Sequence record: MN432485
DNA: 51,296 nucleotides
Origin: Shigella phage SFP17
Strand: one strand, 5' to 3'
Below are positions 5,694 to 51,265 of this stretch, one piece after another. Under the pieces are notes generated by a model. The model did not search any database, had not been told where the DNA came from, and was given only the letters and a program-made list of their open reading frames with translations. Each line of letters starts with the position of its first letter. The stretch's first letter is position 1. Both the position numbers and the translations under genes were made by a program.

Positions 5694-5739
5694 ATTATGC
5701 CCGACACAAGGCCGGGCGTTTTAACAAAAAGTGCTATTT
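5694..5739 (-). promoter_or_regulatory. conserved-motif promoter (motif + 22 nt dyad spacer + CATAAT)
   Basis: AAATAGCACTTTTTGTTAAAAC then GCCCGG...CCGGGC then CATAAT; upstream of 5482-5661. Confidence 0.5.
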
Positions 5740-6713: not shown

Positions 6714-6759
6714 ATTATGGCGCAATCCTTCGCGCCTGTTTTAACAAAAAGTGCTATTT
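6714..6759 (-). promoter_or_regulatory. conserved-motif promoter upstream of dam
   Basis: AAATAGCACTTTTTGTTAAAAC + 22 nt (GGCGCgaaggattGCGCC) + CATAAT. Confidence 0.5.
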
Positions 6760-9243: not shown

Positions 9244-9282
9244 ACACAATCATTAAATCATCGTTTAACAAAAAATGCTATT
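9239..9282 (-). promoter_or_regulatory. conserved-motif promoter upstream of helicase
   Basis: AATAGCATTTTTTGTTAAACG + 21 nt + TATTAT; predicted start site almost coincides with ATG 9229. Confidence 0.45.
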
Positions 9283-18039: not shown

Positions 18040-18083
18040 GATAGCACTTTTTGCTAAACGCCCACCGCAAGATCGTGTATAGT
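18040..18083 (+). promoter_or_regulatory. conserved-motif promoter upstream of cor
   Basis: GATAGCACTTTTTGCTAAACG + 21 nt + TATAGT. Confidence 0.5.
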
Positions 18084-28709: not shown

Positions 28710-28729
28710 ATAGCACTTTTTGTTAAAAG
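28710..28729 (+). promoter_or_regulatory. conserved motif copy in reverse orientation relative to flanking tail genes
   Basis: ATAGCACTTTTTGTTAAAAG reads rightward, abutting the RBS of the minus-strand chaperone gene; poor -10 (TAGCAT) at the usual spacing. Confidence 0.35.
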
Positions 28730-31392: not shown

Positions 31393-31405
31393 TTCATAAC
31401 CTCCA

Positions 31406-31435
31406 ATAAAAAAGGGAATCCAGTTAAGGATTCCC
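31406..31435 (-). terminator. intrinsic terminator after major capsid gene
   Basis: GGGAATCC-agttaa-GGATTCCC followed on minus strand by TTTTTTATTGG. Confidence 0.75.
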
Positions 31436-31448
31436 CAATGTTATACGA

Positions 31449-32423
31449 TTAACCTGATTTTTTCAAGCCAGTAATAAGTACTAGCGTAAACGGACGGTAA
31501 ATCGTCAGGCCAGTACATTTTGAAGTGCACGGAACTTTGAAATGCAGATCTTTTGGTTGCGCCGGAAGCATGTTAAATGCTTCTGGAATTTCGATCGACA
31601 TGTTCATCGGGTCTTTCTCATATACCAGGCAACCTTTCGTTCCAGCGCCATCAATATCCTCAAGCTCTGCGATTGAGTCGATGGTGATTCCGCTGTTTTG
31701 TTTCTGGAAGTATTCCAGATAACTTTCAGTGGTGTTTTCCATTCGAACGGAAAGAACCTTGCGCATAGACGGCGGAATCAAGATATTGGTTGCGCGGTGC
31801 TGACCATTGGTGATGGTCTGAATGGTTTCAATAGCCTTTTCCAGTTCATCAGATGCAGCCTGCGGGAACTTAGTGTTTTCATCATTACTTAACCAGCCAG
31901 AAGACATGATCTTTGTCAGGTTAGGATGTTCGAACACCGAAAGAATCTTATGCGGCTTTGAACCCTTAAACACCAGGCGGTTAACTTCCTGATCATGAGC
32001 GTTTTGCGCTGCGTTTGCCTTGCGAGTGGAAAGGCTCTTACCAGTGCGCTGACCAGCCTTGATTTCGTCAATGGAGATCAAGAACGCGTTACCCAGGCGG
32101 AATACTTTACCGAACTCGCTAGACATCAGCGCGTCAACGGTCGGCAGGTCGTCGGTGTAATCAGCGATAATTTTTGCGTAACCAACTTTGTCAAACATCT
32201 GATATTCAAAAGTCTTATCAGTATCAGAAAGCTCATTAGTTACAGGGAATACGCGAAGCGCTGAACCTGCCGGATATTCTTTCTCGTAAGCATTAGAGCG
32301 AATCTTATGCAGTTCTTGAGCGGCCCAAATACCCATATCGGACGCATCACCTTTAACGCCGCGAGTAGCCAGATAGCTAGAAACAATGTCCGCATCTAGC
32401 TGATCAAATTTTTCTTTTTCCAT
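31449..32423 (-). CDS. major capsid protein
   Basis: 324 aa, strong RBS GGAGGAAG, strong terminator downstream; position after scaffold and decoration-like genes. Confidence 0.8.
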   Translation of the reverse strand: MEKEKFDQLDADIVSSYLATRGVKGDASDMGIWAAQELHKIRSNAYEKEYPAGSALRVFPVTNELSDTDKTFEYQMFDKVGYAKIIADYTDDLPTVDALMSSEFGKVFRLGNAFLISIDEIKAGQRTGKSLSTRKANAAQNAHDQEVNRLVFKGSKPHKILSVFEHPNLTKIMSSGWLSNDENTKFPQAASDELEKAIETIQTITNGQHRATNILIPPSMRKVLSVRMENTTESYLEYFQKQNSGITIDSIAELEDIDGAGTKGCLVYEKDPMNMSIEIPEAFNMLPAQPKDLHFKVPCTSKCTGLTIYRPFTLVLITGLKKSG

Positions 32424-32469
32424 TTTCTTCCTCCATATATAAAGGTCGTTAGTATGTAACGGACCAATG

Positions 32470-32489
32470 ATAGCATTTTTTGTTAAACG
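32470..32489 (+). promoter_or_regulatory. conserved motif copy in reverse orientation relative to flanking capsid genes
   Basis: ATAGCATTTTTTGTTAAACG reads rightward between two minus-strand capsid genes; poor -10 (TATGGG). Confidence 0.35.
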
Positions 32490-32506
32490 TGCAACATAAT
32501 TTTGTG

Positions 32507-32941
32507 TTATGGGTCAATGCTTACCCCGACAATATATGAATCATTATCAACCTTTACATGTTCGCCAGTAAAGATCCAACCAATCAGCAAGTCGCCTTCA
32601 CTGTATGCCACATCTCCATCTTGCGTTACAAATACTTTATCTCCATATTCTGGCGCTTCGCTCTCAGAAGTTAAGCACCAAACATTACCTCGACTAACCA
32701 CATTAACTGGATCGCCCTCCTCATATATGCACGAGTCCGGCGGCCTTACTGCCACGCCAATAACGAGATCCCCATTAACACTTGCTATTTTGTATCCATT
32801 TGTTGTATGTGATAGTCGCACAATCTTACCTGGCTCAATAAATTCATCTCCGCACACGAAAGATCCGTTAATCACCATTATTGAAGAATCGACCATGCAC
32901 CCTGGCGACTCAGCGCCAACAATGACTGAATAATCACTCAT
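32507..32941 (-). CDS. capsid-associated (decoration-like) protein, paralog 2
   Basis: Shares G-V-W-L...AP..G...DG.V....G....WI.TG...K block with 32987-33499; RBS GGAG. Confidence 0.55.
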   Translation of the reverse strand: MSDYSVIVGAESPGCMVDSSIMVINGSFVCGDEFIEPGKIVRLSHTTNGYKIASVNGDLVIGVAVRPPDSCIYEEGDPVNVVSRGNVWCLTSESEAPEYGDKVFVTQDGDVAYSEGDLLIGWIFTGEHVKVDNDSYIVGVSIDP

Positions 32942-32954
32942 GAGAACTCCAAAT

Positions 32955-32979
32955 ATAAAAAAGGCGCTCAGTGAGCGCC
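32955..32979 (-). terminator. intrinsic terminator between the two capsid-associated paralogs
   Basis: GGCGCT-loop-AGCGCC followed on minus strand by TTTTTTATATTT. Confidence 0.65.
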
Positions 32980-32986
32980 ATATTTA

Positions 32987-33499
32987 TTAACCTGCTGAAA
33001 CTGCCGGAACTTTTTGCACCTGAACCTCTACCAGCTTCAAGTCTTGAAACTTGGTGAAATCACCAGTCGCGATCCAGTTTGTTTCGATAGTGCCAGACGT
33101 GGTATCGACCTGACCATCATCAGACAGTTTGATTGCAGTGCCGAAAGCTGGCGCGGAAGCGTCTTTAGCCAACATCCAAACACGCCCCTCAGTCATTACG
33201 TTGATTCCGCCGCCAGATTCATAAATCATTCGACCGTCAGACGAAGTTGTCTGAAAGTGAGATCGAATTGCAACGCCGTAAGCCTTTCCGCTTGCCGCCA
33301 TCGGCTTAATTAGCTTATTGCCCATAGCGTCAACGCCGCCATGCTGGACCGCCACACCAACAAAAACAGACTGATTCTGATTGCCTGCTGCATTCTCAAG
33401 AACACAAGCGCCATCAATATTATAAGCTGAAGTGTCAGAAACCTGACCAGGTAACGCACGAGACATTACAGCAAAGTAGCTTGCTCCAATTGTAGCCAT
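32987..33499 (-). CDS. capsid-associated (decoration-like) protein, paralog 1
   Basis: Paralogous to 32507-32941; RBS AGGAGA; terminator downstream. Confidence 0.55.
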   Translation of the reverse strand: MATIGASYFAVMSRALPGQVSDTSAYNIDGACVLENAAGNQNQSVFVGVAVQHGGVDAMGNKLIKPMAASGKAYGVAIRSHFQTTSSDGRMIYESGGGINVMTEGRVWMLAKDASAPAFGTAIKLSDDGQVDTTSGTIETNWIATGDFTKFQDLKLVEVQVQKVPAVSAG

Positions 33500-33511
33500 G
33501 TTTATTTCTCC

Positions 33512-34624
33512 TTATTTAAGTTTTTTCAAACGCGCAGTAGGATCAAGGGAGTCGGTTTTTTCACTCTTGCCAGATTCGAAAGAATCGCCCTTAACAGATT
33601 TACGCTGCGCCGCCATTTTATCAGACTGCTTCGCAAGGTCAAAAGCTGTTTCAATATATGCATCGGCTTTTTCTGAAATATCAGCGCCAGTGACTTCTTT
33701 GACATAAGCAACCTTGATCGCTTTAGCGTCCAATCCGTCACACTTGATGCCAATTTCAGTTGCATCTGCAACCAGCTTGGCGTGTTCTTCTGCGTCAGTC
33801 TTTGCCTTCTTAACAGCTTCTGCAATCTGCGCCGGAATGCCATCGACTTTAGTTTTCAGGGCGTCGCGCTCGGCCTCAAGGCCATCAGCTTTTTCGGTTG
33901 CAGCTTTTGCGTCTGCCTTTAACGCCTCAATATGATCAGCAACGGCCTTTGGAACATCAAATTCTACCGCGCCATCAAGTTTAATTTTTACTGTCATTTC
34001 CTCATCTCCTTTGTCATTTAGAACCTCGTCACTATACGGAAAATCTTGTTCACTATCAAGATTTAATTTGGCAATGCCAGCACGACCACGAAAGACAAGA
34101 GCAATGTGATTAACTCTGATGTTAGTCTGAATGGCGTCAAATTTCACCCAATCAGGAGAATCCGGATTCCAGTCTTCTTTAATGTCTTCCTCAAATAAGT
34201 AATCACCAGTTTTATTGTTGCCCCAGCCTGGCTTATCAATATCAATTGATGTGTAACCAACTGAAATTTCAGCCGTATCTTTCTTTTTTGCGCTCTCAAT
34301 TGCTCGCTTTGAGTAAATGCTTAACGGAACTTCAACGCCAATTCCATTAGGAACACCAGCGCCAGCGCATGAACCAACAACAACCTGATCCGCATTATCT
34401 GGCGTCACTGTGACGTGACCGATAGTGATCGGCTTACCTGCGAAAGTAGCAAGGGAATCAGCCTTGAACACCTCGGACGCTGGACGGAACTCTCGTCTGA
34501 TTCCATACGGTGTGCGGTACTCCTGCAAGCCAATTCTCGCCACAATTGGGCGATCAACTAAAAAGCCATTATCATCAAAATGCGCCTTAACCTGGACGCT
34601 ATCAAATCTTTGTTTTGCCTTCAT
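33512..34624 (-). CDS. putative capsid scaffolding / maturation protein
   Basis: Globular N-terminal domain plus Ala/Lys/Glu/Asp-rich coiled-coil C-terminus; position between head morphogenesis gene and capsid. Confidence 0.5.
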   Translation of the reverse strand: MKAKQRFDSVQVKAHFDDNGFLVDRPIVARIGLQEYRTPYGIRREFRPASEVFKADSLATFAGKPITIGHVTVTPDNADQVVVGSCAGAGVPNGIGVEVPLSIYSKRAIESAKKKDTAEISVGYTSIDIDKPGWGNNKTGDYLFEEDIKEDWNPDSPDWVKFDAIQTNIRVNHIALVFRGRAGIAKLNLDSEQDFPYSDEVLNDKGDEEMTVKIKLDGAVEFDVPKAVADHIEALKADAKAATEKADGLEAERDALKTKVDGIPAQIAEAVKKAKTDAEEHAKLVADATEIGIKCDGLDAKAIKVAYVKEVTGADISEKADAYIETAFDLAKQSDKMAAQRKSVKGDSFESGKSEKTDSLDPTARLKKLK

Positions 34625-34627
34625 TAA

Positions 34628-35392
34628 TTACTCTCCTTTATTATTCCAATCTGGAATCGCCCAGCAACGGCAACCCCACGGCTCACCAGGGAAATCATGA
34701 ATTGCATCAAGCGCTATTCTTTTACCTTCCCATAACACATGCTGCAAGCGCTCTCTATCATCTAACATCCCATGCCAGAAATAATGAGTCACCTTAGCAT
34801 CATAAAGGCGCTGGCGCATCAGGCGACTATTCCACGCGCCGATAATGTTTTCTGATCTTGTTTTGCCCCAAGAGCTATAAACAGCAAATCTCTTTTCTGC
34901 AAGATCATTAACCTGTTTATCATTGCTTCCGCGAAAGTTTGCATTGCGAATGTTTGTTGACCAGTCAGACACAATATTTGTGAATAGCTTCCTTAGCGAT
35001 GATTCTGTAAGGCCGTGCCATTGACCGTAAAGCGTCTGATACCACTCCTCGTTAGCGTTAGCGCCAATCGCGATCAAAACAATTACCGCCGTGTTATCCT
35101 TTCCGCCAGTTGACTTGGCAACATTGATAAACTGCTTCGCATTGAATTTATAAATGGTCAACGCGATTGCAGGAAGAGTGGAAACAATGCCAGCTATAAG
35201 GTCAGTTGCCAGGATGTTAATTTCATCTTCTGCGCTGTTGATCTCATTATCTGTTGCGTCAAACTTCATCGCTTTTGTTCGCTTGCGCATGAGAACCACA
35301 AGATCTCTAATTGCCTCCTGAATTGAGCGGCTAAATTGCCGCTCGCTTGCTTCAGGAAAGCGCCATTGTTTAACGACGCCCTTCACTTTCAT
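34628..35392 (-). CDS. head morphogenesis (minor head) protein
   Basis: Directly downstream of portal; C-terminal CRCWAIPDW motif. Confidence 0.6.
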   Translation of the reverse strand: MKVKGVVKQWRFPEASERQFSRSIQEAIRDLVVLMRKRTKAMKFDATDNEINSAEDEINILATDLIAGIVSTLPAIALTIYKFNAKQFINVAKSTGGKDNTAVIVLIAIGANANEEWYQTLYGQWHGLTESSLRKLFTNIVSDWSTNIRNANFRGSNDKQVNDLAEKRFAVYSSWGKTRSENIIGAWNSRLMRQRLYDAKVTHYFWHGMLDDRERLQHVLWEGKRIALDAIHDFPGEPWGCRCWAIPDWNNKGE

Positions 35393-36672
35393 TACTCATT
35401 CCCCTGTGTGCCTGGCTCCGGCTCAGTTGGCTCCGGCAGCTTGATTTTATTAGTGTCCTTTAGTTTAACGCTTGGGGCGATTGCTCGCAACGTGTCGCGC
35501 GCCTCTTCAACATCAAGGAACTGACCATCAATAGCCTTGCTGATTGAGTCGATATTCTTATTCAGAATTTCAGCCTGATCTTTATCGCTAGGTACGCTCA
35601 AAGGTGAGAACTCAATGCTCCACTCCTGCTCACTAATGATGAACGGTAATAGAAATTCAAGGATAGGCTTGTAATCCTCAATGCGCTTTCGTTCAATCAG
35701 TTTATAGAATGTTTCAAGCGCCGTGTTTTGGCTTGCGCTAACGCCGCCAACGTTTTTATTTTTCAGGATGATTTCATGAATACCTGAAAGGGAAACGATG
35801 CGATCCATTTTCTTTTCCAGAAAAGAATCAACGCCGCTAATATCAGAGTTAAGAACATCATATTCCTCATCCTCAGCATCAATACCAATGGCCTTGCCTA
35901 CTCCACCCTCATCGTCAACCTGCGCAAGTCTCAGGCGTGCCGCGCTAACTCCCTCCTCATCATCGCACAAGTCAGCGAGTCCTTTAGCTTTCCATACTGC
36001 CTGTTGCTTCCGCCGCAATAATTGCGTTGCCAATGTTTCACAATAGTTATAATCAACAATGGCCTCAACAAGTCTCTTGTTAAGAACTGACTCACCCCAT
36101 CCATCATTGCTGCGTCGCTTTGCGTTAGGTATCCGCTCACCGTCGATAATGCAAACACGCGTGTAGTGTACCTGGTATTCCGGCAAATCTCCGCCTGGCG
36201 TTACAGTGTAAAGCACTGGCTCACCATAGCGAACCTTGCGGGGATTAGTTTCGCGCGCTTCAACGCGAATCTGATAACGATCATAAACGCGCACATCTTC
36301 CAGAATAGCTCCAGGCTTTACAGGTGATTTGAGCGCTCGCCCATCCTGAACAAGAGCAATGATTGCAGATCCGCCAAACAAACGCGACCAGCAAAGCGCA
36401 TCAATGATTTTTGCATTCAATCGCTTCTCATCCCACAAAGAACGGAATGCCGCCTCGTCTGCCACGCCGTCAACAGTAAAGCCAGGGGAAACCATTTCCT
36501 CTGGTACTACGTCAATAATCCTTTTTGCCAGGCCATCTTTTTCGTAAAAGTCAGCAAGTGTCTTGTATGGCATTGATTGCATGTAGAATGGTTGCTCTAC
36601 TCGCGATTTGCAATTCTCGCCTTTAAAGATCTCGTTATAGCCGTCAGCCTTAACGATTCGTGATTTACTCAT
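35392..36672 (-). CDS. portal protein
   Basis: 426 aa immediately downstream of terminase large subunit; acidic C-terminus; RBS GGAGG. Confidence 0.8.
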   Translation of the reverse strand: MSKSRIVKADGYNEIFKGENCKSRVEQPFYMQSMPYKTLADFYEKDGLAKRIIDVVPEEMVSPGFTVDGVADEAAFRSLWDEKRLNAKIIDALCWSRLFGGSAIIALVQDGRALKSPVKPGAILEDVRVYDRYQIRVEARETNPRKVRYGEPVLYTVTPGGDLPEYQVHYTRVCIIDGERIPNAKRRSNDGWGESVLNKRLVEAIVDYNYCETLATQLLRRKQQAVWKAKGLADLCDDEEGVSAARLRLAQVDDEGGVGKAIGIDAEDEEYDVLNSDISGVDSFLEKKMDRIVSLSGIHEIILKNKNVGGVSASQNTALETFYKLIERKRIEDYKPILEFLLPFIISEQEWSIEFSPLSVPSDKDQAEILNKNIDSISKAIDGQFLDVEEARDTLRAIAPSVKLKDTNKIKLPEPTEPEPGTQGNE

Positions 36673-36740: not shown

Positions 36741-38309
36741 CTATTTGTTCCGCAAACCTGCCAATTTTTTCATTCTTCCTACCGGATCATCTGCCATGTT
36801 CATTTCAATGTTAACAGCATCAATGATGTTATCAACAATATCATCATGAGGATGCGAATCATCGAATGTAAACGCCGCAACTTCAGCCAGTATCTCAGCC
36901 AGCATAGGGTGGGATTCTGGAAGTGCTACGCGTCCGGCGCGCATTACTGGCGCTGCGTCCATTGCACGAGTAACCTTGTCTTTATCGCGCTGAACGGGAT
37001 TGATCTTGATCATGATTTTTTTCGCTGCGCTCTGAATCAAGCCAGTGCCAGACGATTTATCTTCAACATGAATCCTTCTCAACGTTCCGCATTCTTTATT
37101 GCGCTTCCAGCACTGATTAACGAACGCAACAAAATTAGTCTCAAGGTCTGGCGCTTCCCATTTTCCGCGAACACCATCAATGAAGTAAACGCGATCTTTA
37201 TACATCCCCCAATAACAGATCACGGAGTAGTCGTTAAGCTCCCCTGTTTTCTGCGCGGTATCAACCGTGATAAATGTATATTCAAAGCGATCCGGTTTTG
37301 GTAGCGTGCATTTCTCGCTGCTTCCGTAATACCGAAACCACTCTGTTTTAAACACGTTGCCGCCAAGCGCAACAGGCTGTTGCTGATACTGACTAGCAAA
37401 CGTGTACGGATCAGCATTTCGAAGTGCAAGTAATTCCTCCGCGCTTTCCTTAGCAGGCCAGAATGAATAATGAGCAACACCATCAATCATTACTGGCTTA
37501 CTGGACAAAACATCGCGATCAAACTCAGGCTTTAACCAATCAGGAAGCGTTTCGCGATATTCCTTAGTAACGAGCGCCGGAATACTGACCACCTTAAACT
37601 GGATGCCGCCCATGCCGCCGTTTGTCATGAACCATGTTGAATCATTGACGTGTAGCCGTTGCTGGACCATTACGATTGGCGTGGTGTCCTTCATTCGACG
37701 TGATCGCACCGTGTTCTTTAGGCGCATGTGTCCGGCTTCGCGCTTCACCTTAGAAAGCATATCATCCGGCTTGTCTGGATCGTCAAGAACCAGCATACCA
37801 GTAAATCCATCATCCATGTAGCCGCCACGCAGACCAGTAACCTGACCACCGATAGAACGCGAGTTAACTTGCAATTTAACCTTGCCGCCATCGGTTACAA
37901 TCAAATCCTTTGCGCTCGCCTTTGCCAGCTTTCCAGGCCATAGCTCCTGCCATTCTGGAGAACCAATAATCTCTTTGATGCGGTTGCTATTCTGCTGGAC
38001 AAGGCCATCACTAAACGAAAGATTAAGATTTCGCACCTTCTTACTTTTCAATGACGCATAAGGTGACATGTGGATCGAGAATATCTCTGTTTTACCACTG
38101 CCTGGCGTTATGTTGAAAATTACATTCTGTGACTCGCCTTTGATGATTTTTTCAACTTCGCTACATAGGTAACTGAAATGCCAGTTTCCTAAGAATTTCT
38201 GACCTTGCAATAACTGAAACCAAATGCGGATCATCTTTTCGAATGAATATTCGCTCATTTCCTTAACGGCGCGTTTTTGCGCCGCTGTTAAGTCTTCCCA
38301 AATCAGCAT
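36741..38309 (-). CDS. terL: terminase large subunit
   Basis: Walker A-like TPGSGKTE, Walker B-like LVLDDPD, C-terminal acidic nuclease-like region; followed by portal. Confidence 0.85.
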   Translation of the reverse strand: MLIWEDLTAAQKRAVKEMSEYSFEKMIRIWFQLLQGQKFLGNWHFSYLCSEVEKIIKGESQNVIFNITPGSGKTEIFSIHMSPYASLKSKKVRNLNLSFSDGLVQQNSNRIKEIIGSPEWQELWPGKLAKASAKDLIVTDGGKVKLQVNSRSIGGQVTGLRGGYMDDGFTGMLVLDDPDKPDDMLSKVKREAGHMRLKNTVRSRRMKDTTPIVMVQQRLHVNDSTWFMTNGGMGGIQFKVVSIPALVTKEYRETLPDWLKPEFDRDVLSSKPVMIDGVAHYSFWPAKESAEELLALRNADPYTFASQYQQQPVALGGNVFKTEWFRYYGSSEKCTLPKPDRFEYTFITVDTAQKTGELNDYSVICYWGMYKDRVYFIDGVRGKWEAPDLETNFVAFVNQCWKRNKECGTLRRIHVEDKSSGTGLIQSAAKKIMIKINPVQRDKDKVTRAMDAAPVMRAGRVALPESHPMLAEILAEVAAFTFDDSHPHDDIVDNIIDAVNIEMNMADDPVGRMKKLAGLRNK

Positions 38310-40928: not shown

Positions 40929-40973
40929 ACTTTAACAAATGCCCTCGCGGAAGTTTTAACAAAAAGTGCTATT
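40929..40973 (-). promoter_or_regulatory. conserved-motif promoter
   Basis: AATAGCACTTTTTGTTAAAAC + 22 nt + TAAAGT; upstream of 40639-40896. Confidence 0.5.
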
Positions 40974-43631: not shown

Positions 43632-43677
43632 ACTATACCGCAAGCCCAACAATCTGTTTTTGCAAAAAGTGCTATTT
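43632..43677 (-). promoter_or_regulatory. conserved-motif promoter
   Basis: AAATAGCACTTTTTGCAAAAAC + 22 nt + TATAGT; upstream of 43301-43600. Confidence 0.5.
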
Positions 43678-44930: not shown

Positions 44931-44975
44931 ATTATACCTGGCCCCACATTTGAGTTTTAACAATTCGTGCTATTT
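44931..44975 (-). promoter_or_regulatory. conserved-motif promoter (GAATTG variant)
   Basis: AAATAGCACGAATTGTTAAAAC + 21 nt + TATAAT; upstream of 44670-44900. Confidence 0.5.
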
Positions 44976-45934: not shown

Positions 45935-45980
45935 ATTATGCCTGGTTATCGTTTTTGAGTTTTGACAAAAAGTGCTATTT
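45935..45980 (-). promoter_or_regulatory. conserved-motif promoter
   Basis: AAATAGCACTTTTTGTCAAAAC + 22 nt + CATAAT; upstream of 44974-45879. Confidence 0.5.
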
Positions 45981-46397: not shown

Positions 46398-46443
46398 ATT
46401 ATGCCAGGATTTGCACCTGGCGTTTTAACAAAAAGTGCTATTT
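46398..46443 (-). promoter_or_regulatory. conserved-motif promoter
   Basis: AAATAGCACTTTTTGTTAAAAC + 22 nt (CCAGGtgcaaatCCTGG) + CATAAT; upstream of 46180-46365. Confidence 0.5.
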
Positions 46444-47821: not shown

Positions 47822-47867
47822 AAATAGCACTTTTTGTTAAAACGTGCCTGACTGGATTCGGCATAAT
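47822..47867 (+). promoter_or_regulatory. conserved-motif promoter
   Basis: AAATAGCACTTTTTGTTAAAAC + 22 nt + CATAAT; upstream of 47906-48178. Confidence 0.5.
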
Positions 47868-48700: not shown

Positions 48701-48744
48701 AAAGCACTTTTTGTTAAAACTCAATCCTGGCAATCCGATATATT
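48699..48744 (+). promoter_or_regulatory. conserved-motif promoter
   Basis: AAAAGCACTTTTTGTTAAAAC + 22 nt + TATATT; upstream of 48778-48930. Confidence 0.5.
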
Positions 48745-48930: not shown

Positions 48931-49201
48931 GTTTTACAGTTATACCGATACCGTTGATTTTGATGGGATACAATTGCCCCTCCCTAACAACTACAGATAC
49001 ATAACTCGTGACCGTTTCGGTTTTATCCAGGGGTGGCGGAACAAACCAACACACACTGAGTTCGGTATGTCTGGAGGAGAAGAGTTGCCGATCACTTTTG
49101 GTCATCAAAGCGGTGAAAATCTTCCGGTTGTTGCGCGTAAGTATCGCAGACACAAGATTACAAGGCAGCTTATCTCTTTAACTGGATCTGTTGTTGAATA
49201 G
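48920..49201 (+). CDS. hypothetical protein (93 aa)
   Basis: ATG at 48920 with GGAG upstream; track ORF starts earlier at non-ATG. Confidence 0.55.
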   Translation: MSSKFYSYTDTVDFDGIQLPLPNNYRYITRDRFGFIQGWRNKPTHTEFGMSGGEELPITFGHQSGENLPVVARKYRRHKITRQLISLTGSVVE

Positions 49202-49241
49202 CACTTTTTGTTAAAACCGATGCGTCTCTGATTGGTATATT
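49197..49241 (+). promoter_or_regulatory. conserved-motif promoter
   Basis: AATAGCACTTTTTGTTAAAAC + 22 nt + TATATT; upstream of 49273-49467. Confidence 0.5.
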
Positions 49242-50529: not shown

Positions 50530-51225
50530 ATGTATAAAGGTTTAATATTCTCTTTGTTTGATGGATCTGGCAAAGCCGTTAAAGATTGGGCGGAGGCTGG
50601 ATATCAATGCATTTGCTTTAATGCTGATGATGCTGATCATGGTGATTACCAGTCAGTGCGGATAATTCACGATAACATTTATTACGTTAACGCGTGGATT
50701 GATGCTGATTTTATATATAAAGCGTGCCTTGAAACATGGGGTAAGCCTGATTTCATTATGGCATTTCCGCCTTGCACACAATTAGCAAATAGTGGATCTC
50801 GTCATTGGGCTAAAAAGCGCATGGAAAATCCTAACTTCCAATATGAAGCCGCCGACACTTGCAAAATTGCGGCGCATATCGCTGATTATTTCGGTGTTCC
50901 GTACATGATAGAGAATCCTGTAGGCAAGCTGTCAACGTTATGGCGCAAGCCTGATTATACGTTCCATCCGTGCGATTATGCTGGCTATCTTCCGGAAGAT
51001 GATAAGCATCCCGACTTCCCTGATATTATTCCGGCGCGGGATCGGTACTTTAAGAAAACATGCCTTTGGACTGGAAACGGATTTGTTATTCCTCCGCGCG
51101 CAACAATCCTTCCTAAAGAGGATGACAAGGATAATCCTGGTTGGGCCAAAACTGGCGGAAAATCATCTCGCCGCCCTACTCCGCGAGGTTTTGCTCGCGC
51201 CGTCTTTGAAGCTAACGCAAAATAG
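50530..51225 (+). CDS. putative DNA methyltransferase (C5-cytosine-like motifs)
   Basis: Motif I-like LFDGSG, motif IV-like FPPCTQ, motif VI-like IENPVGKL; RBS GAGGTGA; short (231 aa) so assignment is tentative. Confidence 0.55.
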   Translation: MYKGLIFSLFDGSGKAVKDWAEAGYQCICFNADDADHGDYQSVRIIHDNIYYVNAWIDADFIYKACLETWGKPDFIMAFPPCTQLANSGSRHWAKKRMENPNFQYEAADTCKIAAHIADYFGVPYMIENPVGKLSTLWRKPDYTFHPCDYAGYLPEDDKHPDFPDIIPARDRYFKKTCLWTGNGFVIPPRATILPKEDDKDNPGWAKTGGKSSRRPTPRGFARAVFEANAK

Positions 51226-51265
51226 CACTTTTTGTTAAAAGCCAGGTGTAAAAGCCTGGCATAAT
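51220..51265 (+). promoter_or_regulatory. conserved-motif promoter driving the gene at window position 1
   Basis: AAATAGCACTTTTTGTTAAAAG + 22 nt (GCCAGGtgtaaaaGCCTGGC) + CATAAT, then RBS AAAGGAGA at window end. Confidence 0.5.

Follow-up and report, generated by a model that had tools for sequence, protein, structure and literature searches.

The two tandem genes that separate the protease/scaffold gene from the major capsid gene of Shigella phage SFP17 encode, as their alignments and profile matches indicate, two paralogous capsid cement (decoration) proteins, here designated P1 and P2. Their arrangement, with an intrinsic terminator between the two genes, is the standard layout of T1-like phages. 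The reading that we favour is a two-cement system of the T1 type, in which P1 would form the bulk of the cement and P2 would be a minor subunit produced by read-through, with a structural role after the loss of its Big2 domain; taken jointly, these points appear to us reasonably probable.

Phage identity and gene organization of the cement region

The analysed DNA (51,296 nucleotides; sequence record MN432485) is referred to below as the window. The 3.3-kb region around the cement pair shows 98.5% identity to Escherichia phage haarsle and 96–98% identity to many other members (Drexlerviridae, Tempevirinae, Hanrivervirus), and by these identities the window is Hanrivervirus-like and represents a T1-like siphophage of the Drexlerviridae. 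All genes in the cement region are encoded on the (-) strand (Table 1). P1 and P2 are located between the protease/scaffold and major capsid genes, as expected for the cement family, and the capsid gene is the next gene downstream, as the first-pass annotation had stated. The gaps between P1 and P2 and between P2 and the capsid gene are 45 and 83 bp, respectively; the former consists of a hairpin, a U-tract, and the Shine-Dalgarno sequence of P2. In both P1 and P2, a GGAG Shine-Dalgarno sequence lies 5–8 nt before the ATG.

Several genes of the late region, including the capsid gene and a 90-aa gene, are followed by terminator-like hairpins. A 143-aa ORF (32502-32933, (+) strand) is antisense to the P2 gene and mirrors it, and is probably a by-product of the P2 frame. 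Scanning of the window for tRNA genes and Rfam families yielded no match.

Table 1. Features of the cement region and adjacent head genes in the window
Feature	Position	Strand	Remarks
Large terminase	36741-38309	-	
Portal	35392-36672	-	
Mu-F-like head protein	34628-35392	-	
Head maturation protease/scaffold	33512-34624	-	370 aa; directly upstream of cement genes; PF09979 (DUF2213), E = 1.3e-26; PHROG 530, E = 2e-111
Candidate P1 promoter	33615-33642	-	TTGACC-16-TAAAAT, TG extended -10; inside protease gene, ~115 nt upstream of P1
P1, major cement (decoration) protein	32987-33499	-	170 aa; T1 gp49 counterpart by PF22758, 9kmg/9kzj, and gp49 matches
Intrinsic terminator	32953-32979	-	Hairpin and U-tract in P1-P2 gap
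P2, putative minor cement paralog	32507-32941	-	144 aa; cement (beta-tulip) domain only; positional counterpart of T1 gp48
Promoter-like element	32467-32494	-	TTGCAC-N16-TATCAT, TG extended -10; directly upstream of capsid gene
Small bulged hairpin	32444-32465	-	GGUCCGUUA-CAUAC-UAACGACC; between promoter-like element and capsid-gene ribosome-binding site
Major capsid protein	31449-32423	-	324 aa; PF09950, E = 5.3e-54; PHROG 264 (major head protein), E = 1.2e-98
Terminator-like hairpin	31413-31436	-	End of capsid gene unit; annotated terminator in vB_EcoS_G29-2

P1 and P2 as paralogous cement proteins

Pairwise BLASTP alignment of P1 and P2 gave 33% identity over 79 residues (E = 4e-14), and the aligned block, G-VW-L...AP-(F/Y)G...DG-V...G...WI-TG...K, is the same as that noticed in the first-pass annotation, where the two products had been described as decoration-like proteins sharing a conserved block; the similarity is thus significant, and the description was correct. 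Both proteins scored above the gathering thresholds of PF22758 (Phage_cement) and PF23982 (XM1_gp53_minor_capsid), for each of which the cut-off is 27 bits: P1 with 92.9 bits (E = 2.6e-26) and 66.3 bits, and P2 with 58.0 bits (E = 1.5e-15) and 92.8 bits (E = 2.5e-26), respectively, the E-values spanning 1.5e-15 to 2.5e-26. PHROG 1989 was also matched by both. By these sequence criteria, P1 and P2 are true paralogs, and both are capsid cement/decoration proteins.

P1 shares 53% identity with T1 gp49 (BLASTP E = 7e-55) and matches the cement protein of PDB entries 9kmg/9kzj with an E-value of 7e-47. Because the latter match is to the solved T1 gp49, P1 is expected to have a fold of the beta-tulip type, and the matches together identify it as the counterpart of T1 gp49, i.e. 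the major cement protein.

P2 matches the same T1/FCWL1 PDB entries more weakly than P1 does, including the 255-aa T1 gp48 and FCWL1 gp29. Its AlphaFold2 model (pLDDT 85.9, pTM 0.83) is that of a complete cement domain, for which Foldseek returned a probability of 1.00 and TM values of 0.66–0.78 against the solved cement proteins of T1, FCWL1, Pam3, and XM1. The T1/FCWL1 cement proteins ranked best in the PDB, followed by those of Pam3, XM1, BB1, and HFTV1, and the superpositions with the lowest rmsd were those on T1 gp48 (9kzj_H; 2.6 Å, 34% identity) and FCWL1 gp29 (9kmh_ak; 2.5 Å). An end-to-end alignment of P2 and the T1 gp48 cement domain shows 32% identity (E = 7e-11), and the BLASTP match of P2 to T1 gp49 is slightly better (E = 7e-15), so sequence scores do not separate the two assignments. 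As neither BLASTP nor the tree described below settles the matter, the putative equivalence of P2 and gp48 is based on synteny, the end-to-end alignment, the structural fit, and the existence of Big2-bearing intermediates. By position, P2 is the counterpart of T1 gp48, and the gp48 cement domain is among the best structural matches of its predicted fold. Database homologs of P2 with 86–98% identity are almost all 144 aa in length, and one with 54% identity is 143 aa. In public records, these genes are labelled 'hypothetical', 'zonula occludens toxin', or 'BIG2 domain-containing protein', for which the present analysis gives the correct names.

Comparison with known cement systems

The T=7 head of T1, the structure of which was published in 2025, carries 80 homotrimers of gp49 and 60 heterotrimers consisting of one gp48 and two gp49 subunits (PMC11945409). 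Both proteins have the beta-tulip fold, the N-terminus of gp49 being inserted into the shell and gp48 being located only outside, and the C-terminal Big2 domain of gp48 is protruding and flexible and may help adsorption (PMC11945409). T1 (gp49, 158 aa; gp48, 255 aa; PDB 9KZJ) belongs to the same family, Drexlerviridae, as SFP17 and has the same gene order (protease-P1-terminator-P2-promoter-like element-capsid gene); its heterotrimers have been seen directly, whereas those of SFP17 would be expected by analogy.

The T1-like siphophage FCWL1 possesses the same two paralogs, named 'cement protein II' and 'decoration protein gp29'. The sequence of its major cement protein is identical to that of T1 gp49, and gp29 is a 255-aa Big2 protein, whereas SFP17 P2 lacks Big2. 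Both paralogs have been assigned positions in the capsid structures of T1 and FCWL1 (PDB 9KZJ, 9KMG, and 9KMH; PMC11945409), the FCWL1 structures 9KMG and 9KMH being those of Cai et al. (2025, Structure 33:663) as cited in PMC13033339. Of the six trimers that surround a hexon, two are heterotrimers according to the legend of Fig. 2A of the T1 study (PMC11945409), and the portal-vertex model of FCWL1 contains five gp29 chains, from which we infer that the heterotrimers are adjacent to the vertices.

Pseudomonas phage E217 gp24, cyanophage Pam3 gp6, and Vibrio phage XM1 gp53 belong to the same PF22758/PF23982 family and share its fold. The cement genes of these phages and of Webervirus-type phages occupy the same protease/scaffold-capsid interval as in SFP17, with a terminator after the cement gene, but each is a single gene without a minor paralog, presumably forming homotrimers everywhere, whereas SFP17 has two genes. 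Lambda gpD and TW1 gp56 are likewise trimeric beta-tulip cement proteins at the three-fold positions of a T=7 HK97-fold capsid, as in T1 (PMC11945409). TW1 (5wk1) was a weak Foldseek match of the P2 model, but the two proteins have no detectable sequence relationship to the SFP17 pair and are products of single genes that form only homotrimers. Herpesvirus triplexes consist of one Tri1 and two Tri2 subunits, i.e. a 1:2 heterotrimer, and all of those known are heterotrimers, whereas the minor subunit of T1 is present only in the 60 heterotrimers. An analogy in the beta-tulip fold has been drawn between the triplex and T1 cement (PMC11945409); the cement pair would work alike, as a 1:2 heterotrimeric cement of related beta-tulip-like subunits, with no sequence homology.

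Absence of the Big2 domain from P2

Searching of P2 for Big_2 (PF02368) gave no match; the cement domains cover residues 1–142 of 144, so the protein stops two residues past them, whereas T1 gp48 continues into its protruding C-terminal PF02368 domain. A gp48-type Big2 domain was also absent from all six frames of the whole window. Pfam Big_2 is matched by T1 gp48 and by the Jahat protein, and the 239-aa relative P0023 scored 20.5 bits, just under the cut-off of 22.8 bits. P0023 shares 51% identity with P2, is derived from a phage with 82% capsid-protein identity, and is encoded in a locus with the same terminator-P2-promoter layout, and its Big2 region is 40% identical to that of T1 gp48 (E = 3e-11). 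In the neighbour-joining tree, P2 proteins with and without Big2 are intermixed, and the simplest reading of this tree is that an ancestral Big2 domain was lost several times independently.

The absence of Big2 is the sole unusual point of the SFP17 pair, and it represents a form that is common in the family. The first-pass annotation had proposed that the second copy could change the properties of the capsid surface. This fits T1, in which Big2 protrudes; because SFP17 P2 lacks the domain, a role in surface properties is less likely in SFP17 than a purely structural one.

Comparison across related loci

Eighty loci around capsid-protein homologs from IMG/VR were compared together with those of T1, a Warwickvirus, and a Webervirus, 81 of the loci being usable, and the genes between the protease and capsid genes were classified with HMMs built from seed proteins. 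The two-paralog layout was found in 50 of the 81 related loci: in 24, the second paralog carries Big2 and is 250–270 aa in length, and in 26, including the window and TLS-like phages, it is short (143–173 aa). The remaining 31 loci, those of Webervirus and others, have a single cement gene, and their capsid proteins are only 53–59% identical. The pair is present in the T1, Warwickvirus, TLS-like, and Rogue-like lineages, and short P2 genes are spread over several genera. The tandem arrangement, which had been regarded as unusual in the first-pass annotation, is not so in these data or in the T1 and FCWL1 capsids, where both paralogs have been located.

In the single-copy loci, the order is cement gene, terminator, promoter-like element, and capsid gene, and in the 50 two-copy loci, it is invariably P1, terminator, P2, promoter-like element, and capsid gene. 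The comparison with single-copy relatives thus places P2 exactly between the terminator and the promoter-like element of the single-copy layout. A hairpin with a T-run follows the single cement gene in 16 of 30 loci according to the detector and in the other 14 by eye, the stems of the latter running into the T-run and so escaping detection. Because one cement protein suffices for the same capsid in Webervirus-type relatives, the second cement subunit is not geometrically required. Shigella phage Sf11 was considered as a further single-copy relative and rejected, as its decoration protein is TW1-like and has only weak similarity (Foldseek E = 0.03–0.14, 12–14% identity).

Age of the duplication and selection on P2

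The identity between P1 and P2 of the same genome is 23–43% in 43 genomes. In the neighbour-joining tree, P2 never clusters with the P1 of its own lineage, and the P2 proteins do not all form one clade. The low identity and the separation of P2 from the P1 of its own lineage indicate that the duplication predates the divergence of the genera, and on this evidence the duplication is ancient. The scenario implied by the first-pass annotation, a fairly recent, lineage-specific duplication yielding an unusual, altered capsid surface, would explain why the two genes are in tandem and share a conserved block; it is contradicted by the within-genome identities, by the tree, by the occurrence of the pair in several lineages, and by the lack of a surface-exposed Big2 domain in SFP17 P2, and we consider it very improbable.

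Among six Hanriverviruses, dN/dS was 0.17 in P2 and 0.16 in P1, as against 0.08 in the capsid gene and 0.04 in the protease gene, and the P2 ORF had an invariant length of 144 codons in the six relatives. With its ribosome-binding site also intact, P2 is by these measures under purifying selection and is not a pseudogene, a fate that had been envisaged for one of the two copies.

A related alternative is that P2 is no longer a capsid component in the Big2-less lineages, being either a decaying remnant of a gp48-type gene or a non-virion factor such as an assembly chaperone of P1 trimers. The domain to which the distinct function of gp48 is attributed is gone, and P2 evolves faster than P1 (dN of 0.046 vs 0.021 in the Hanriverviruses; 32–44% identity between genera or groups vs a mean of 63% for P1 across the two-paralog phages). 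In addition, single-cement relatives demonstrate that one protein can cover all sites, and in the TLS study, only the P1-type protein (Gp34) was assigned to a virion gel band; a 15-kDa component present in ~60 copies would, however, be easily overlooked on a stained gel. Decay is also at odds with the selection, constant ORF length, and intact ribosome-binding site described above, and with the retention of a short P2 in 26 of the 50 two-paralog loci and in several genera. Moreover, the predicted structure of P2 is a complete cement domain that is best superposed on the virion-bound gp48 and gp29. We therefore regard a non-virion P2 as unlikely. A literature search retrieved no expression, termination-efficiency, or virion-composition data for SFP17 or any Big2-less relative, no virion proteomics for Hanrivervirus, and no Drexlerviridae transcript map.

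Terminator and promoter-like elements

The intrinsic terminator between P1 and P2, which had been recognized in the first-pass annotation, was confirmed in its sequence and predicted fold. On the coding strand, its sequence is GGCGCUC-ACU-GAGCGCC followed by UUUUUUAUAU, i.e. a 7-bp stem with six GC pairs and a 3-nt loop (32963-32979) and a tract with six U residues (32953-32962), and its folding energy is -14.8 kcal/mol (z = -3.0 vs shuffles). The GenBank entry of vB_EcoS_G29-2, a close relative, already has this element annotated as a terminator. All 50 two-paralog loci contain a terminator-like hairpin with a T-tract in the P1-P2 gap, whereas the detector scored 5% of random 80-nt windows in the same loci. 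The stems fall into ~10 unrelated sequence types (for example, GGCGCUC, GGGGACUAUCC, GGCCGG, GGCUCC, GGCACUC, GACCGC, and GCCACUC), indicating that the structure has been kept while the sequence has changed. Differential expression of the two genes would be the most plausible consequence of this terminator.

The great majority of the related loci have a site of the same form as the candidate P1 promoter in the corresponding position, and 71 of 79 loci contain a high-scoring promoter-like site within 260 nt upstream of the first cement gene. The sequence of the candidate also encodes the conserved peptide FDLAKxSDKMAAQR; because the two overlap, its conservation is not attributable to promoter function, and a dedicated P1 promoter within the protease gene is retained only as a candidate. 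Between the P1 start and the P2 start, including the P1 coding region, no promoter-like site was found by a consensus-based scan, which missed even the element preceding the capsid gene in the window.

Of 80 related loci, 78 have this latter element in the form TT[G/T]-N3-N13-14-TGnTAnnnT, the T1 version being TTGACG-16-TATTAT with TG. In the window, a copy of an 18-nt repeat, TTTAACAAAAA(A/G)TGCTAT, forms its spacer; the genome contains ~16 copies of this repeat vs 1.6 expected, and phage TLS also contains it, reported there as a direct repeat of unknown function (PMC11447400). Most copies of the repeat lack a -35 and a proper -10 sequence, and many are oriented against the local genes; the possibility that every copy is an extended -10 promoter was accordingly rejected. 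Because most copies lack a -35 sequence, the element preceding the capsid gene may not be a simple promoter but a site to which a factor binds, and the 18-nt element may bind a phage factor. At the position of the small bulged hairpin, the stem sequences differ by lineage in the two-paralog phages and the structure is preserved; considered as a possible terminator or 5' stabiliser, this hairpin is weak in the window and thermodynamically not notable (z = +0.67).

P2 lies between the terminator and the promoter-like element of the capsid gene and has no recognisable promoter of its own, so its mRNA would be produced only by read-through. The hairpin could instead be an efficient terminator and/or a stabiliser of the 3' end of the P1 mRNA; P2 would then be expressed from a promoter that escaped recognition or by way of processed transcripts, and translation or assembly selectivity, rather than termination, would set the P1:P2 ratio. 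Such an arrangement would agree with the terminator-like hairpins found after several late genes, which match the description of the T1 late region as a 'transcripton' quoted in PMC11447400, with the failure of the consensus-based scan to detect the capsid-gene element, and with the presence of the repeated 18-nt element. It is less easily reconciled with a 45-bp gap that is filled by the hairpin, U-tract, and Shine-Dalgarno sequence, with a P1 coding region devoid of promoter-like sites, and with the invariance of the terminator-P2-promoter order in 50 loci, and there is in our view only a small chance that it applies.

Proposed function of the two-cement system and its implications

In the read-through reading that we favour, P1 would be an abundant beta-tulip cement protein whose trimers occupy the T=7 capsid at its three-fold and quasi-three-fold positions, and P2, an old and fast-evolving paralog, would by analogy with T1 gp48 be incorporated into the virion, replacing one subunit in each of the ~55–60 trimers that touch the vertices. 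The P2:P1 ratio would then be ~1:6, i.e. ~55–60 copies of P2 vs ~360 of P1. P1 transcription would end for the most part at the intrinsic terminator, and transcription of the capsid gene would be restarted from the promoter-like element; termination at ~80–85% would alone yield the subunit ratio of T1, and the P1:P2 ratio would in this way be encoded in the gene order. With Big2 lost in the SFP17 lineage, the remaining role of P2 would be structural and not adhesive. A stronger version, which we put forward tentatively and think more doubtful than the reading above, is that the minor paralog is itself indispensable, P1 being specialised for the three-fold sites formed by hexons only and P2 for the vertex-adjacent sites, that purifying selection has kept it for this purpose even in the several lineages, that of SFP17 included, which lost Big2 independently, and that its placement between the terminator and the capsid-gene promoter fixes the ratio of ~1:6 by read-through alone.

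The cement pair of SFP17 is an ordinary feature of its family and does not overturn current understanding. The comparison extends the two-paralog cement system solved in T1 to a family-wide module, which we describe as regulated. For phage display and engineering, P2 would be a site limited to ~60 copies per head. In the Big2-less P2 proteins, nature offers a way to test the function of the minor cement subunit beyond the display of an Ig-like domain, and if P2 is required at the vertex-adjacent trimers, the pair would be a compact phage parallel of the herpesvirus triplex, one in which gene order dictates the stoichiometry.

Mosaic structure of the genome

The genome in the window is mosaic: the head module (31400-34700) is most closely related to that of phage haarsle (98.5%), and the left 25 kb (1-25000) to that of phage vojen (96.3%). 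Among close relatives, the synonymous divergence (dS) of the minor cement paralog P2 (144 aa) is 0.28, compared with 0.14-0.18 in neighbouring genes. This approximately 2-fold elevation hints at local recombination at P2. The opposite strand of P2 contains an ORF of nearly the same extent (Table), which is probably a by-product of the P2 reading frame.

In a related locus, L042 (IMGVR_UViG_2974601010), a short P2 of 164 aa is the sister of the T1-type P2 proteins that carry the C-terminal Ig-like domain Big2. The spacer between the P2 stop codon and the capsid gene is unusually long in this locus (157 nt) and rich in GAAGA/CCGGAA repeats; it may be what is left of a C-terminal domain that was deleted.

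Features ahead of the capsid gene and elsewhere in the window
Feature	Position	Strand	Remark
143-aa ORF	32502-32933	+	near-exact mirror of the 144-aa gene on the other strand
Hairpin	32444-32465	-	between the promoter-like element and the ribosome-binding site of the capsid gene
18-nt element copies	602-619, 5720-5737, 6740-6757, 9264-9281, 18041-18058, 28710-28727, 32470-32487, 40955-40972, 43658-43675, 44956-44973, 45961-45978, 46424-46441, 47824-47841, 48701-48718, 49198-49215, 51222-51239		

Database records of related phages

Misannotations have been propagated in the GenBank records of haarsle (MN850600) and phiE31-2 (PP988008) and in loci L090 and L091, where the 170-aa major cement protein is labelled 'putative zonula occludens toxin', the protease/scaffold 'major capsid protein', and the 144-aa homolog, which lacks Big2 and has been given a shortened start, 'BIG2 domain-containing protein'.

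In the phage collection search, approximately 19-21 'Campylobacter phage' records, with C. jejuni as the stated host, matched the coliphage module of the window; in one of them, A127 (MG065667), the counterpart shares 93% identity with the 144-aa protein. The stated host looks doubtful, and we raise the question of whether these records represent contaminating T1-like coliphages. The record of Shigella phage 2019SD1 (NC_049820; loci L009 / L018, proteins P0001 and P0054) is flagged UNVERIFIED_ASMBLY. Both of its cement genes are present as scrambled, internally duplicated copies, including a repeated 60-residue block in P0001; these copies probably reflect an assembly artefact and not a third paralog.

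Hairpin ahead of the capsid gene and 18-nt repeated element

The hairpin ahead of the capsid gene is weak in the window. Hairpins also occupy this site in the two-paralog lineages (loci L002-L070); their stems vary in sequence from lineage to lineage, and many have a T-run at the end. Such a hairpin would begin at approximately position +1 of a transcript from the promoter-like element, and could serve either as a 5' stabiliser or as a stop for read-through transcripts.

An 18-nt element, TTTAACAAAAA(A/G)TGCTAT, is present in approximately 16 copies on both strands of the window, against 1.6 expected, and the 21-nt 'direct repeat' of phage TLS is its reverse complement (PMC11447400). Only at the copy preceding the capsid gene is the element accompanied by a -35-like TTGCAC and a completed TGnTATCAT extended -10. 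In the early regions, its orientation is opposite to that of the genes there. Instead of a simple promoter, the element may be a site to which a phage regulator binds.
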